64,000 nt of DNA, from the sequence record MK373774.1. One strand, 5' to 3'. A program made the position numbers and the translations under genes. The notes below the pieces were generated by a model. The model searched no databases. It was not told the origin of the DNA and saw only the letters and a program-made list of their open reading frames with translations. This document shows positions 5,087 through 37,148 of the stretch, piece after piece. This DNA is from Escherichia phage vB_EcoM_WFL6982. How positions within the stretch are numbered: the stretch's first letter is position 1; every line of letters starts with the position of its first letter.

Positions 5087-5899
5087 ATGATCAAAGAACA
5101 ACTTTTGAAAGAAGCTCAGAACATCGAGACTTCAGTTGCTCTTAATAGTGTTTTCGAATCAGTAGAACTGTCTCCGGACGTTAAAGCTAATTTCAGCACT
5201 GTATTCGAAGCCACCGTTAAGCAGGAAGCAGTCAAACTTGCTGAATCTCATATCAAAGCCATCGCCGAAAAGGCCGAAGAAGAAGTTGAAAAGGCTAAAG
5301 AAGATGCTGAAGAGAAAGCTGATAAAAAATTGGCTGAACAAGCTTCTAAATTCCTAGACCATCTTGCAAAAGAATGGCTCGCAGAAAACCAAATCGCAGT
5401 TGATAAAGGCATTAAAGCTGATTTGTTCGAATCCATGCTTGGTGGTCTGAAAGAACTGTTTGTTGAACATAACGTTGTTGTTCCAGAAGAATCTGTAGAT
5501 GTTGTAGCAGAAATGGAAGAAGAGCTGGCCGAACATAAAGAAGAAACCGCTCGTTTGTTCGAAGAAGTTACCAAACGTGATGCATATATCAATTACGTTC
5601 AGCGTGAAACCGCTATTAATGAAAGCGTAAAAGACCTGACTGAATCTCAGAAAGAAAAAGTTATTGGCCTGGTTGAAGGTATGGATTATTCTGACGCATT
5701 TGGTACTAAGTTAACTGCTATTGTAGAAATGGTTAAAGGTTCTACTAAAGAAGAAGCCGCTATTACCGAAAGTATAAATACAGTTGACAATGACGCTGCC
5801 GGTCTTAATTTTGTTGCCGAAGCAGTTGACACTACCACAACTCAGGTAGAACAGAATTCTAATGTAAGTTTATATGCGAAAGTCGCATCTCGTTTCTAA
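5087..5899 (+). CDS. 22: Prohead core scaffolding protein gp22
   Basis: 270 aa, Glu/Lys/Ala-rich coiled-coil-like sequence; T4 synteny. Confidence 0.9.
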   Translation: MIKEQLLKEAQNIETSVALNSVFESVELSPDVKANFSTVFEATVKQEAVKLAESHIKAIAEKAEEEVEKAKEDAEEKADKKLAEQASKFLDHLAKEWLAENQIAVDKGIKADLFESMLGGLKELFVEHNVVVPEESVDVVAEMEEELAEHKEETARLFEEVTKRDAYINYVQRETAINESVKDLTESQKEKVIGLVEGMDYSDAFGTKLTAIVEMVKGSTKEEAAITESINTVDNDAAGLNFVAEAVDTTTTQVEQNSNVSLYAKVASRF

Positions 5900-5916
5900 T
5901 TTAAAGGTTAACACAA

Positions 5917-7485
5917 ATGACTACTATCAAAACTAAAGCTCAGCTCGTAGACAAATGGAAAGAACTGCTGGAAGGTGAAGGCCTGCCGGAAATCGCTAAT
6001 AGCAAGCAGGCTATTATCGCTAAAATCTTCGAAAACCAGGAAAAAGATTTCGAAGTATCCCCTGAATATAAAGACGAGAAAATCGCTCAGGCATTTGGTT
6101 CTTTCTTGACCGAAGCTGAAATTGGCGGTGACCACGGTTATAACGCTCAGAACATCGCAGCAGGTCAAACCTCTGGTGCAGTAACCCAAATTGGGCCGGC
6201 AGTTATGGGTATGGTTCGTCGTGCTATTCCTAATCTGATCGCTTTTGATATTTGTGGTGTTCAGCCTATGAACAGCCCTACCGGTCAGGTATTTGCTCTC
6301 CGTGCAGTATATGGTAAAGACCCTATCGCTGCCGGCGCTAAAGAAGCTTTCCATCCGATGTATGCTCCAGATGCGATGTTCTCTGGTCAGGGTGCTGCTA
6401 AGAAATTCCCAGCTCTGGCTGCTAGCACACAAACCACAGTAGGTGATATCTATACTCACTTCTTCCAAGAAACTGGTACTGTATATCTGCAAGCTTCTGC
6501 TGTCGTAACACTTGATTCTGGTGCAACTGATGCAGCTAAATTAGATGCAGAAGTTAAGAAACAAATGGAAGCTGGTGCACTGGTAGAAATCGCTGAAGGT
6601 ATGGCTACTTCTATCGCTGAACTCCAGGAAGGTTTCAACGGTTCTACCGATAACCCATGGAATGAAATGGGCTTCCGTATCGATAAACAAGTTATCGAAG
6701 CTAAATCTCGCCAGCTGAAAGCTGCTTACTCTATCGAATTAGCACAAGACCTCCGTGCAGTACACGGTATGGATGCTGATGCTGAATTGAGTGGTATTCT
6801 GGCTACAGAAATTATGCTAGAAATCAACCGTGAAGTTGTTGATTGGATTAACTACTCTGCACAGGTTGGTAAATCTGGTATGACCCTGACTCCGGGTTCT
6901 AAAGCTGGTGTATTTGACTTCCAGGACCCGATTGATATCCGTGGTGCTCGTTGGGCCGGTGAAAGCTTTAAATCTCTGTTGTTCCAGATTGATAAAGAAG
7001 CAGTTGAAATTGCTCGTCAAACCGGTCGCGGTGAAGGTAACTTCATTATCGCTTCCCGTAACGTAGTTAACGTACTGGCTTCAGTTGATACTGGTATTTC
7101 TTACGCTGCACAGGGTCTGGCTTCTGGTTTTAATACCGACACTACTAAGTCTGTATTTGCCGGTGTCCTTGGTGGTAAATACCGCGTATACATCGACCAG
7201 TATGCTAAACAGGATTACTTCACCGTTGGTTACAAAGGCGCTAACGAAATGGATGCAGGTATCTACTATGCTCCTTACGTTGCACTTACCCCGCTGCGTG
7301 GTTCCGATCCTAAGAACTTCCAGCCGGTAATGGGCTTTAAAACTCGTTACGGTATCGGTGTTAACCCGTTTGCTGAAAGTTCCCTGCAGGCTCCAGGTGC
7401 TCGCATCCAGTCCGGTATGCCGTCTATCCTGAACAGCCTTGGTAAGAACGCTTACTTTAGACGCGTCTACGTTAAAGGAATTTAA
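5917..7485 (+). CDS. 23: Major capsid protein gp23
   Basis: 522 aa; T4 gp23 size; followed by strong hairpin terminator. Confidence 0.95.
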   Translation: MTTIKTKAQLVDKWKELLEGEGLPEIANSKQAIIAKIFENQEKDFEVSPEYKDEKIAQAFGSFLTEAEIGGDHGYNAQNIAAGQTSGAVTQIGPAVMGMVRRAIPNLIAFDICGVQPMNSPTGQVFALRAVYGKDPIAAGAKEAFHPMYAPDAMFSGQGAAKKFPALAASTQTTVGDIYTHFFQETGTVYLQASAVVTLDSGATDAAKLDAEVKKQMEAGALVEIAEGMATSIAELQEGFNGSTDNPWNEMGFRIDKQVIEAKSRQLKAAYSIELAQDLRAVHGMDADAELSGILATEIMLEINREVVDWINYSAQVGKSGMTLTPGSKAGVFDFQDPIDIRGARWAGESFKSLLFQIDKEAVEIARQTGRGEGNFIIASRNVVNVLASVDTGISYAAQGLASGFNTDTTKSVFAGVLGGKYRVYIDQYAKQDYFTVGYKGANEMDAGIYYAPYVALTPLRGSDPKNFQPVMGFKTRYGIGVNPFAESSLQAPGARIQSGMPSILNSLGKNAYFRRVYVKGI

Positions 7486-7512
7486 TGCTTTAACGTTAAA
7501 ATACATAACCTT

Positions 7513-7539
7513 ATGGGAGACTTCGGTCTCCCATTTTTG
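7513..7539 (+). terminator. Rho-independent terminator after gene 23 (atgggagac-ttcg-gtctcccat + T-run)
   Basis: Perfect 9-bp stem with UUCG loop followed by TTTTT. Confidence 0.75.
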
Positions 7540-7542
7540 GTT

Positions 7543-7812
7543 TTATTTCTGTGCAATTTCGATGTAAGTTTTCAAAATATTTTGCCAATTAGGCATACCT
7601 TCTTGGGCATATGCCGGAGAACCATCTTTGTTTTTGAATGATGCAAGTTTATCAGTGGCCCAATAACCTTTAGCTCGAGCTTCAGAATCAACTTTCATCC
7701 ATACTTTGTTGAAGGCATTACCATTAACTTTTGCACCATATTTTTCTACTAACTTAACTGCTTCAGCTTCCAGAACTTTTAAAGTATCTCGTAAGAAACG
7801 TGCTTTAGTCAT
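7543..7812 (-). CDS. Hypothetical early protein (89 aa) antisense between genes 23 and 24
   Basis: ORF preceded by GTTTAC-type early promoter and Shine-Dalgarno GAGGAG; occupies the locus where T4 has segD but has no endonuclease motifs. Confidence 0.55.
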   Translation of the reverse strand: MTKARFLRDTLKVLEAEAVKLVEKYGAKVNGNAFNKVWMKVDSEARAKGYWATDKLASFKNKDGSPAYAQEGMPNWQNILKTYIEIAQK

Positions 7813-7837
7813 TTTGTTTACTCCTCTGTAGTTGATA

Positions 7838-7875
7838 AGTCTATAGTATCACATACCAAATACGTTGTAAACAAT
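7838..7875 (-). promoter_or_regulatory. T4 early promoter (-35 TTTACA, 17 nt, -10 TACTAT)
   Basis: Minus-strand reading gtttacaacgtatttggtatgtgatactat. Confidence 0.5.
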
Positions 7876-7878
7876 CTT

Positions 7879-7886
7879 TATAAATA
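7879..7886 (+). promoter_or_regulatory. Late promoter TATAAATA (gene 24)
   Basis: Exact TATAAATA 28 nt upstream of gene 24. Confidence 0.6.
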
Positions 7887-7913
7887 ATCTATATCACATA
7901 AGGAAAAAATGCA

Positions 7914-9197
7914 ATGAGTAAAATCCAAAAATTATTGCGTGAATCTACAACGTCTACTAGCAACTCAATTGGTCGCCCAAATCTCGTTGCTTTGACTCGC
8001 GCTACGACTAAATTAATATATTCTGACATTGTAGCAACACAAAGAACTAATCAACCTGTTGCTGCTTTTTATGGTATCAAATATCTTAACCCAGATAACG
8101 AATTCACATTTAAAACTGGCGCTACTTATGCTGGTGAAGCTGGATACGTAGACCGAGAAAAAATTACTGAGCTCACAGAAGAATCAAAAGTCACACTAAA
8201 TAAAGGCGATTTTTTCAAATATAATAATATCGTCTATAAAGTGTTAGAAGATACACCATTTGCAGATATTCAAGAAAGTGATCTAGAATTAGCTCTTCAG
8301 ATTGCAGTCGTTCATTTAAAGGTACGGTTATTTTCAGATGCAGCGGTAACAAGCAAATTTGAAAGCTCTGATAGCGAAATTTCTGATGCAAGATTCCAGA
8401 TTAATAAATGGCAAACTTCAGTCAAATCTCGTAAACTTAAAACTGGTCTCACGGTTGAATTAGCGCAAGATTTGGAAGCGAATGGATTTGATGCCCCTAA
8501 CTTCTTAGAAGATTTGCTTGCTACTGAAATGGCAGATGAAATTAATAAAGATATTCTTCAGTCTTTAATTACTGTATCGAAACGTTATAAAGTTACTGGA
8601 ATTACTGACACCGGATTTATTGACTTGAGCTATGCATCCGCTCCAGAAGCAGGTCGTTCGTTATATCGAATGGTGTGTGAAATGGTATCACACATCCAAA
8701 AAGAGACAACTTATACTGCAACGTTTTGTGTAGCCTCAGCTCGTGCAGCTGCTATTCTTGCTGCTTCCGGTTGGTTAAAACATAAGCCAGAAGATGACAA
8801 GTATCTTTCACAAAATGCTTATGGATTCTTGGCAAATGGATTACCTCTTTACTGCGATACCAACAGCCCGTTAGATTATGTTATTGTGGGTGTTGTAGAA
8901 AATCTCGGCGAAAAAGAAATTGTAGGGTCCATCTTTTATGCTCCATACACTGAAGGAGTGGATTTAGATGACCCGGAACATGTCGGTGCATTTAAAGTTG
9001 TAGTTGATCCGGAAAGCTTGCAACCGTCTATTGGATTATTGGTTAGATATGCTTTATCAGCAAATCCTTACACAGTAGCAAAAGATGAAAAAGAAGCGAG
9101 AGTAATTGATGGCGGGGACATGGATAAAATGGCGGGACGTTCAGACTTGTCTGTTTTACTCGGTGTTAAATTGCCTAAAATTATTATAGATGAATAA
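7914..9197 (+). CDS. 24: Capsid vertex protein gp24
   Basis: 427 aa, gp23 paralog, T4 length and position. Confidence 0.92.
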   Translation: MSKIQKLLRESTTSTSNSIGRPNLVALTRATTKLIYSDIVATQRTNQPVAAFYGIKYLNPDNEFTFKTGATYAGEAGYVDREKITELTEESKVTLNKGDFFKYNNIVYKVLEDTPFADIQESDLELALQIAVVHLKVRLFSDAAVTSKFESSDSEISDARFQINKWQTSVKSRKLKTGLTVELAQDLEANGFDAPNFLEDLLATEMADEINKDILQSLITVSKRYKVTGITDTGFIDLSYASAPEAGRSLYRMVCEMVSHIQKETTYTATFCVASARAAAILAASGWLKHKPEDDKYLSQNAYGFLANGLPLYCDTNSPLDYVIVGVVENLGEKEIVGSIFYAPYTEGVDLDDPEHVGAFKVVVDPESLQPSIGLLVRYALSANPYTVAKDEKEARVIDGGDMDKMAGRSDLSVLLGVKLPKIIIDE

Positions 9198-9208
9198 ACA
9201 AAAAAAAA

Positions 9209-9224
9209 GGGACCGTAAGGTCCC
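9209..9224. terminator. Bidirectional terminator hairpin gggacc-gtaa-ggtccc flanked by A-run and T-run
   Basis: Between convergent genes 24 (+) and rnlB (-). Confidence 0.7.
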
Positions 9225-9233
9225 TTTTTTTCG

Positions 9234-10232
9234 TTATGATACTAATTCAATCCATGCAGGACGCAGAACATCTTGCACCATTCGGACTAATTCTTTCTTA
9301 ACAAGATTCGGATTATCAGATGATGTTAATACAATACCTTCACGAGAAGTTTCTTCCAGAATATCTTGAACAGTCAATCCCATCACTTTGCCAAAAGATT
9401 TTGGCGTTACAGCCCCAATCTTAGAAATAACATTATTAACACGATTTAATGTAACATAACAAGCTAGAACATCAAGCAAGTTTTTGTCAATTTCGGTTAA
9501 TGGAACCTGAGTTTTAATAGGCTTATCAGACTTTTTCTTTTCACTGAATTTAGAGTTCTTGCACTTAATAGCTACACGAGTACCGTTTGGCAGCCATTTA
9601 GGGAAACAAGGCTTCAGAACATAACCTTCTGCCGTATTATCGCCAATAACATTAGCATCAAATACACAATTATTTGCTTCGACAAGGTCTTCTGACGCAG
9701 TAGCATTATAAGCGGCTAAGACGGAATCAAGGTCATTTGGAATCATGATAAGAGAATCAAATGTTCCACGACCAAGCATTGGTGCCATTTTAAAACCGAA
9801 TTCATTACAGAAATCTTGCATTTCGTAATCGGTCAAATACGTATTATCACCACTTTCTGTATTGATAAGGATATCGAACACATAAAAATCTTTTTCACCG
9901 TAGTCAACACCTTTCTGGATTCCACCACCAGCAAATTCACCGAATACTTGATATGATACGGCTCGAGCTGTGTACATGAATTCCTGAACGGCTTTAATAG
10001 CTTTATCATACTTCTTGAGTACGATTTCATAACCATAAAAATCTTCTGCTGGAAGAATAGGGCCTGTGCGCTTGGCGCATGTGACGTTGCCACGTTCAAT
10101 TATTAACGAGAAGTTGGTCCCATGGATTTTCTCACGTGCTACCCAAACACCAGTAGTCAAACCATTAGTGTAGAGTTTTTCAATAAACTTAGAGTTGTAG
10201 TGGTTTTCAAGACTGCTGTATTTCTTAAACAT
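9234..10232 (-). CDS. rnlB: RNA ligase 2 (Rnl2)
   Basis: 332 aa; nucleotidyltransferase lysine motif KIHGTN near N-terminus; T4 synteny. Confidence 0.9.
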
Positions 10233-10603: not shown

Positions 10604-10800
10604 TTCTTCACCTTTTTGTTAATCAAACGTTTACGGTATACAACTTTTTCTTTTGCTTTAAACTTTGACCGAGCTGTCTCGGCTTTAGTCCATAGTAATC
10701 CAACTTCTTTAGGTTGTAAACCAATTTTTTGAGCAATTTCTACGAATGAAAATCCCGCCTCATGTAATGTATAAACTTCAACTTCAGCTCTCATAATCAA
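10600..10800 (-). CDS. Hypothetical small basic protein, HTH-like (24.3 position)
   Basis: 66 aa; FSFVEIAQKIGLQPKEVGLLW resembles helix-turn-helix; overlaps next gene by 4 nt. Confidence 0.55.
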   Translation of the reverse strand: MIMRAEVEVYTLHEAGFSFVEIAQKIGLQPKEVGLLWTKAETARSKFKAKEKVVYRKRLINKKVKK

Positions 10801-16002: not shown

Positions 16003-16014
16003 TATTTATAAATA
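16003..16014. promoter_or_regulatory. Palindromic bidirectional late promoter TATTTATAAATA (genes 26 and 51)
   Basis: 12-nt palindrome giving TATAAATA on both strands between divergent late genes. Confidence 0.55.
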
Positions 16015-22635: not shown

Positions 22636-22670
22636 ATAATAGTATCACACATCCATGTGTTTGTAAACTA
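22636..22670 (-). promoter_or_regulatory. T4 early promoter with spacer inverted repeat
   Basis: Minus strand gtttacaaacacatggatgtgtgatactat. Confidence 0.5.
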
Positions 22671-33582: not shown

Positions 33583-33616
33583 GTTATAGTATCACAACTC
33601 CACCATGTTGTAAACC
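33583..33616 (-). promoter_or_regulatory. Early promoter with spacer inverted repeat
   Basis: Minus strand gtttacaacatggtggagttgtgatactat. Confidence 0.5.
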
Positions 33617-37114: not shown

Positions 37115-37148
37115 CCCATAGTATCACCATCCTTGGTGTTTGTAAACC
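37115..37148 (-). promoter_or_regulatory. Early promoter with spacer inverted repeat
   Basis: Minus strand gtttacaaacaccaaggatggtgatactatgg. Confidence 0.5.

Follow-up and report, generated by a model that had tools for sequence, protein, structure and literature searches.

A small reading frame running antisense between two capsid genes raises the questions of whether it is a gene at all, when it would be expressed, how it came to lie there and what its product might do. Such a frame is found in the window, i.e. the whole 64,000-nt stretch of Escherichia phage vB_EcoM_WFL6982 (MK373774.1) that was analysed, where the end of gene 23 (7485) and the start of gene 24 (7914) are separated by a 428-bp gap containing ORF 7543..7812 on the minus strand. 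An earlier note, drawn from the letters alone, had described an 89-aa basic antisense ORF with its own early-type promoter and a strong Shine-Dalgarno sequence, with the gene 23 terminator on one side and the gene 24 late promoter on the other. All of these elements were located: the ORF exactly at 7543..7812 (-), with a product of pI 9.62 (K+R = 16, D+E = 10); the hairpin at 7513-7534 and the late promoter at 7879-7886 (+) on its two sides; GAGGAG 8 nt from the ATG; and GTTTACA-17-TG-A-TACTAT as the promoter. The features of the slot, in order of position, are the following.

5917..7485, plus strand: gene 23 (major capsid protein), bounding the slot upstream; a 522-aa ORF, annotated thus in the identical record MK373775, with 95% amino acid identity to T4 gp23
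7513..7544 (hairpin 7513-7534), strand unspecified: gene 23 intrinsic terminator, also the 3' boundary of the antisense cassette; 9-bp stem with a cUUCGg tetraloop (+), followed by TTTTTGGTTTT
7543..7812, minus strand: antisense ORF (PHROG 6003, type A); ATG start, 89 aa, intact, from the ORF list
7821-7826, minus strand: Shine-Dalgarno sequence GAGGAG, 8 nt upstream of the ATG, read from the sequence
7843..7872, minus strand: T4-type early (sigma-70) promoter; GTTTACA, 17 nt, TG-A-TACTAT
7879-7886, plus strand: gene 24 late promoter TATAAATA, 27 nt before the ATG at 7914 and back to back with the early promoter
7914..9197, plus strand: gene 24 (capsid vertex protein), bounding the slot downstream; a 427-aa ORF, annotated, with 95% amino acid identity to T4 gp24

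The segment 7300-8100, used as an 801-bp query, is 100% identical to Escherichia phage vB_EcoM_WFK (Mosigvirus, RB69-like T-even), in which the exact 89-aa protein has the accession QBQ77196.1 (WFK_00174) and the description 'hypothetical protein'. The gene therefore already has a GenBank entry, and it is catalogued as PHROG 6003. A search of 7300-8100 against Rfam returned no match.

Two features of the surroundings are recorded in their own right. Compared with T4 over 5087-10232, the window has a sharp mosaic boundary, with gp23 and gp24 95% identical and the adjacent gp22 and RnlB 77% and 75% identical, respectively; the capsid shell genes may have been swapped with the Tequatrovirus lineage, or may be unusually constrained relative to that lineage. 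Moreover, gene 24 is duplicated in tandem (24a, 24b) beside the cassette in Dhakavirus/Gaprivervirus-type phages (VR7, JS98 and contigs L010 and L013), and is single-copy in Mosigvirus and T4.

Coding status and dispensability of the antisense ORF

AT-rich phage DNA is rich in short ORFs, and when the 428-bp gap was shuffled 5000 times, an ATG-initiated ORF of at least 89 codons appeared in 40 of the shuffles (0.8%); this is what could be said for a chance open reading frame and no gene. Against this, the frame is kept in six lineages whose mutual identity is 28-70%, at a near-constant length of 267-282 nt (89-94 codons including the stop). Within types, pairwise pN is 0.20-0.30 compared with a saturated pS of 0.59-0.81, and dN/dS is 0.08-0.16 in four of the five pairs with computable dS and 0.31 in the fifth. 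A full-length profile match and a confident structure prediction, both described below, speak against chance as well. Because frame, length and the large excess of pS over pN are conserved across six lineages, ORF 7543..7812 is, on this comparative evidence, a real protein-coding gene under purifying selection; judged by the same conservation data, the chance reading is effectively refuted and its probability practically nil. In addition, the product has a pI of 9.2-9.9 in all 14 T-even-type members examined. The ORF diverges far faster than its neighbours, with 34-35% identity where gp23 has 84%.

Conservation of the gene does not extend to every carrier. In the RB69 reference genome the copy is decayed and has two frameshifts, one of +1 in a scrambled patch and another from the loss of 1 nt (L009 492-732, corresponding to NC_004928 109291-109531 (-)); it is annotated as RB69ORF189c plus RB69ORF188c. 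RB69ORF188c is the name that other genomes cite as the homologue of their intact gene. In the copy of phage mogra one nucleotide is missing from an A-run, possibly through a sequencing error, and the product in 310Ecol104PP is shortened to 64 aa. Since the RB69 copy is decayed and the mogra and 310Ecol104PP copies are interrupted, the gene is, as read from these genomes, dispensable for growth on laboratory hosts.

Early promoter, gene 24 late promoter and hairpin

On the minus strand, the promoter scan places TTTACA at 7871-7866, a 17-nt spacer and TACTAT with a TG extended -10 at 7848-7843, so that the form of a T4-type early promoter (-35 GTTTAC(A/T), 16-18 nt, TG-extended TAnnnT) is found at 7872-7843 (-). 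Transcription of the ORF is predicted to start near 7836 (-). With generic sigma-70 criteria, the scan of this AT-rich stretch gave 2 sites where 2.2 would be expected, no more than chance; the phage-specific motif GTTTACW-N16-18-TANNNT occurs 14 times in the 64-kb window against an expectation of 1.83 +/- 1.25, none of the shuffles reaching 14, and 13 of the 14 sites are on the minus strand. The GTGATACTAT -10 region of the ORF promoter is common to three further early-promoter sites in the window. Because the motif is enriched, biased to the minus strand and shares its -10 with other sites, the ORF promoter belongs to the ordinary set of early promoters of this phage. The 14 sites are probably that set, and they provide a probable map of the early transcription units of the window. 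Further early-promoter sites, all on the minus strand, were noted at 10692-10721, 22639-22668, 33586-33615 and 37118-37147.

Two other promoter classes were considered for the ORF and set aside. No MotA-box (TGCTT), as expected of a middle promoter, was seen upstream, and the only late-promoter candidate on the ORF strand is a 7/8 match, TATAAAGA, produced by reading the region of the gene 24 promoter in reverse.

An alignment of the upstream regions of the window, RB69, the metagenomic phages L010, L012 and L013, JS98, VR7 and T4 segD shows the -35 and -10 elements to be kept while the spacer varies. The shared order is TATTTATA, 3-5 nt, a -35 of G/A-TTTACA, 17 variable nt, a -10 of TA(C/T)TAT and GGAG, the exceptions being the -35 of L010 (GTGTACA) and the -10 of VR7 (CATAAT, without TG). 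The GGAG core stands upstream of every homologue examined, as well as of T4 segD. TATTTATA is the complement of the late promoter, and TATTTATA-AAG(A)TT-GTTTACA is kept in four genera. The late promoter motif TATAAATA itself is present in 18 copies in the window, compared with 7.5 expected. Elsewhere in the window two TATAAATA motifs overlap on opposite strands, at 16003-16010 (-) and 16007-16014 (+), an arrangement that suggests a divergent pair of late promoters at 16003-16014.

The hairpin is located between the stop codons of gene 23 and of the antisense ORF. Its folding energy is -18.9 kcal/mol on the plus strand (z -5.5) and -17.8 kcal/mol on the minus strand (z -5.0), and it is kept from genus to genus, the stems of VR7 and T4 showing compensatory changes. 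In VR7 a T-run follows it on the ORF strand; in the window no U-run follows it on the minus strand, and as the hairpin lacks a U-tract there, the 3' end of the ORF transcript is uncertain.

A narrow phage family and an exchangeable slot

The earlier note had called the protein an ORFan, and this part of its description did not hold. Residues 1-89 match positions 1-90 of the 90-position PHROG 6003 profile at E 1.5e-44, and for eight other members, including the distant P0021, P0023 and ABPH49 proteins, PHROG 6003 is likewise the sole significant PHROG. The family, of unknown function, includes RB69ORF188c/189c, JS98 orf173, VR7ORF190c and WFK_00174, and it does not differ from the window protein in length, basic charge, or position and strand between genes 23 and 24. 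A tblastn search of the phage collection found the protein in 240 phage records, about 117 of them at 95% identity or more and about 120 at 30-38%; those examined in the latter group are Gaprivervirus, Dhakavirus or Mosigvirus-backbone phages. In Mosigvirus, Gaprivervirus and Dhakavirus the ORF always lies antisense between genes 23 and 24, and the same place and orientation are found in VR7, JS98, EAWsc9 and three metagenomic T4-like contigs. The homologue in Mosigvirus AV110 is WPK33856.1.

Beyond the T-even type, a profile search of 1.84 billion representative proteins returned this small family and two more distant single-domain members. One of them, P0021, is encoded in a run of small same-strand ORFs on contig L006, and its closest isolate relative, in Acinetobacter phage ABPH49 (Vequintavirinae), also lies within a run of small unknown ORFs. 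The other, P0023, is encoded on contig L007 after the tail genes, which include lambda J-like ones; L006 and L007 are unclassified phage contigs. Scans of IMG/VR and metagenomes yielded no more than 15 loci; their ORF identities are of the T-even type throughout, and the majority lie on contigs of about 170 kb. PHROG 6003 is a narrow, phage-only family in accessory positions.

Several candidates were rejected in the course of these searches. The giant proteins P0022 (1347 aa, 8 stretches) and P0024 (3916 aa, 11 stretches) were matched through tandem surface repeats, read as Ig-like, and are summed-score artefacts, and P0020 (160 aa) has a 33-residue identical patch in unrelated sequence and is probably a chimeric metagenomic call. 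Two annotations attached to homologues, 'glycosyl hydrolase family 25' (EAWsc9, L004 2501-2782) and 'NADPH-dependent curcumin reductase CurA' (P0006), were unsupported in any search and are apparently errors. In a literature search, no mention of the RB69, VR7 and JS98 ORF names or of the PHROG number was found, and the text of a 2026 preprint on AV110 early-expressed proteins contains neither the word 'capsid' nor WPK33856.1.

A comparison of the 23-24 gap across T-even phages, proposed earlier as a check, reveals gaps that are empty, that hold segD or that hold the ORF cassette. In RB3 the gap is 83 bp and consists of the late promoter, 17 nt and the hairpin, the early promoter being absent; about 470 Tequatrovirus records share this layout, without any insert. 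Empty gaps are also found in Winklervirus CHI14 (88 bp) and Jiaodavirus JD18 (81 bp). Because the gap is empty (81-88 bp overall) in most relatives, namely most Tequatrovirus, Winklervirus and Jiaodavirus, the promoter-ORF unit is an insertion between hairpin and late promoter, in keeping with the suggestion in the earlier note that the ORF was inserted into a late structural cluster.

That T4 carries segD in this slot, as had been stated, is borne out: segD is found in the same slot and on the same strand in T4 and about 50 relatives. The T4 locus resembles that of the window in slot, strand, the back-to-back gene 24 late promoter, GGAG and the 3' hairpin, and its promoter, positionally equivalent, has the composition TTTACA, 17 nt, TG-n-TA(C/T)TAT. 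The cargo is what differs, a 222-aa GIY-YIG nuclease in T4 and an 89-aa protein without nuclease motif in the window. The best promoter-scan site upstream of T4 segD is TTTACA-17-TATTAT with TG, with 10 of 12 matches (L005 7254-7282, corresponding to NC_000866 ~107253-107281 (-)). T4 segD appears, from the comparison between genera, to use the early promoter of the cassette. A 2010 review stated, however, that no segD-specific promoter is identifiable and that transcripts of segD are likely to be extremely scarce (PMC2988022). This statement is in conflict with the promoter as read here from the T4 sequence, and a conserved early promoter before T4 segD thus bears on the published claim. In a 2022 omics study, T4 segD RNA was classed as early, in a class that is broad (215 of the classified genes), and SegD protein was detected (PMC9697503 supplement). 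The position of segD behind what appears to be the early promoter of the cassette would explain this class.

The ORF itself occurs as two alleles. Type A comprises the window, L012 (69% identical to the window) and L010 (60%), and type B comprises VR7, JS98 and L013, with a mutual identity of 54-60%; between types the identity is 28-38%. Type B is found in Dhakavirus, Gaprivervirus and some Mosigvirus. The allele type does not track the flanks: gp23 and gp24 of the window are 95% identical to those of T4, which has no ORF, and L010 has Dhakavirus/Gaprivervirus-like gp23 and gp24 (91-94% identity, gene 24 duplicated) yet carries a type A ORF, 60% identical to that of the window versus 28-29% to those of VR7 and JS98.

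In LF82-3, the sequence matches that of the window through the promoter to GAGGAG and again from the hairpin on, as compared by eye. The insert between these matches (L021 2001-2930) holds a type B ORF and a 219-aa GIY-YIG endonuclease that starts 4 nt past the ORF-B stop and is 57% identical to T4 SegD (E 3e-86). ORF-B and a SegD-like endonuclease stand in tandem in 38 records, and because these genomes carry both, the ORF and segD are separate genes. Among the records listed as matching ORF and hairpin only, with no endonuclease between, all 17 are Dhakavirus-type.

Promoter, Shine-Dalgarno sequence, ORF and hairpin make up a cassette, placed in a 23-24 gap that is otherwise empty, and its alleles have passed from one lineage to another, on the simplest reading through recombination at the hairpin and at the promoter/Shine-Dalgarno region. 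As to the direction of these events, we infer that a SegD-like endonuclease would have been inserted between the ORF-B stop codon and the hairpin and, in spreading, would drag ORF-B along, since types A and B are too divergent for recombination inside the ORF. The Mosigvirus backbone with ORF-B plus endonuclease accordingly looks, in its arrangement, like homing with co-conversion, and T4 could be derived from such an arrangement by loss of the ORF, with promoter and endonuclease retained.

Proposed role of the product

Early expression of ORF 7543..7812 is what the promoter class, the conservation of the promoter and the early classification of T4 segD RNA together point to. Features of the product itself come from its predicted structure. 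The AlphaFold model, built on a 14-sequence alignment, has a pLDDT of 88.9 and a pTM of 0.76, with helices at 3-25 and 31-48, a beta-hairpin at 56-60/66-70 and a helix at 76-88. In BFVD a type-B family member with the same fold was found (TM 0.78), and no other match was returned. Across 13 sequences, down to 30% identity, M1, K3, F6, G31, N32, N35 and Q70 are invariant, and L14, L21, N30, A45 and S57 are at least 90% conserved. N30 is present in 12 of the 13, giving an N-G-N-x-x-N signature at the turn into helix 2.

The earlier suggestion of a Foldseek search on an AlphaFold model thus led to a confident model without an informative neighbour, nothing in the PDB being found below E 0.38. Similarly, the absence of a nuclease or other recognisable motif, remarked on before, was upheld by the searches made: no match in a PDB sequence search, no nuclease match in Pfam, no family of anti-phage defence proteins in PADLOC-DB at E up to 1, and a probability of 1.1% when the family profile was aligned with T4 SegD by hhalign, which places the protein outside the GIY-YIG/SegD group. 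Pfam DUF4859 scored 16.7 bits (E 0.0072), its gathering threshold being 22.6; just 2 of the 14 family members gave any hit to it, and it was taken as a chance match.

It is rather likely that the gene is a non-essential early accessory gene of Mosigvirus, located in an exchangeable cassette, whose product binds a host macromolecule. Host sigma-70 RNA polymerase would most likely transcribe the ORF from its own promoter in the first minutes of infection, and the small basic protein, neither structural nor catalytic, would bind a host protein or nucleic acid, thereby aiding takeover or countering host defence. The early-accessory binding class is favoured because of the early promoter, small size, conserved charge, fast divergence, patchy distribution and dispensability. 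T-even phages carry many short prereplicative ORFs behind early promoters, and several of their products inhibit host proteins or defences. The window gene is like these small early genes in size, early-type promoter, GGAG, dispensability, patchiness and fast divergence, and differs from them in standing alone within a late structural cluster rather than in a long early-gene array. By analogy with other small T-even early proteins, binding to a host macromolecule would be the most likely mode of action. A bolder version is somewhat unlikely, namely that PHROG 6003 represents a new class of early effector (anti-defence or takeover) with a novel fold, carried in a swappable cassette that supplied both the landing site and the promoter of SegD.

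Other explanations share part of this evidence. A more specific form of the host-binding explanation would make the product a winged-helix-like DNA/RNA-binding regulator that targets the nucleoid, or the transcription of host or phage, early in infection. This would fit the basic pI across the family and the modelled order of helix, short G-N-x-x-N turn, helix and beta-hairpin, and the weak Foldseek list leans the same way (DnaD N-terminal domain, ORC2 winged-helix, Cdt1, a possible archaeal transcriptional regulator and a LOTUS domain), at TM 0.2-0.3. Superposition on winged-helix folds gave no significant structural match, and a regulator of this kind, as far as the model goes, seems unlikely. 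It is quite improbable that the ORF is tied functionally to the SegD-like endonuclease, be it as a regulator, a specificity or immunity factor or a carrier of the homing site. Such a tie is suggested by the slot and promoter type, the same as those of T4 segD, by the 38 genomes with the endonuclease gene 4 nt past the ORF stop in one transcription unit, and by the co-conversion-like replacement of ORF-A by ORF-B plus endonuclease in a Mosigvirus backbone. However, the ORF mostly occurs without an endonuclease (about 117 type A records, together with the 17 listed ones that match ORF and hairpin only, all Dhakavirus-type), T4 has segD without the ORF, and the hhalign probability of 1% indicates no sequence relation to SegD. 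Moreover, the neighbours of the homologues on L006 and L007 have no nuclease Pfam match, those in ABPH49 are all unannotated hypotheticals, and hitch-hiking suffices for the tandem arrangement, given that the divergence of types A and B precludes recombination within the ORF.

The remaining explanations concern the flanking capsid genes. If the antisense transcript rather than the protein mattered, read-through of the hairpin into gene 23 would modulate the capsid gene; the ORF does converge on gene 23, and the minus-strand hairpin has no U-run in the window. This is nevertheless very improbable in light of the strong purifying selection on the protein and the conserved strong ribosome-binding site, of a stable hairpin (-17.8 kcal/mol) between ORF and gene 23 together with the VR7 T-run on the ORF strand, and of the absence of the unit from phages with about 95% identical gp23. 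T4 early sigma-70 promoters, furthermore, are shut off before gene 23 is transcribed, which also counts against it. A role in head assembly or capsid structure would account for the ORF lying strictly between genes 23 and 24 in every T-even carrier, but an early-class promoter instead of TATAAATA on the ORF strand, the lack of the ORF in Tequatrovirus although T4 gp23 and gp24 are 95% identical, the decayed copy in the viable RB69 and homologues in other phages that do not adjoin capsid genes render it highly improbable. The early accessory gene in an exchangeable cassette is thus the reading that is preferred.

What is added here to the existing annotation is the cassette structure, the two alleles, the genomes with ORF and endonuclease in tandem, and the early promoter shared with segD. 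The gene itself represents ordinary accessory-gene plasticity of T-even phages, one more uncharacterised small early gene. The Mosigviruses that carry ORF-B and a SegD-like endonuclease in an ORF-A backbone could be used to find the target of the endonuclease. Among very close phages the cassette is present, absent or allelic, and as one gene with its own promoter it would lend itself readily to experiments by deletion, swap and competition.
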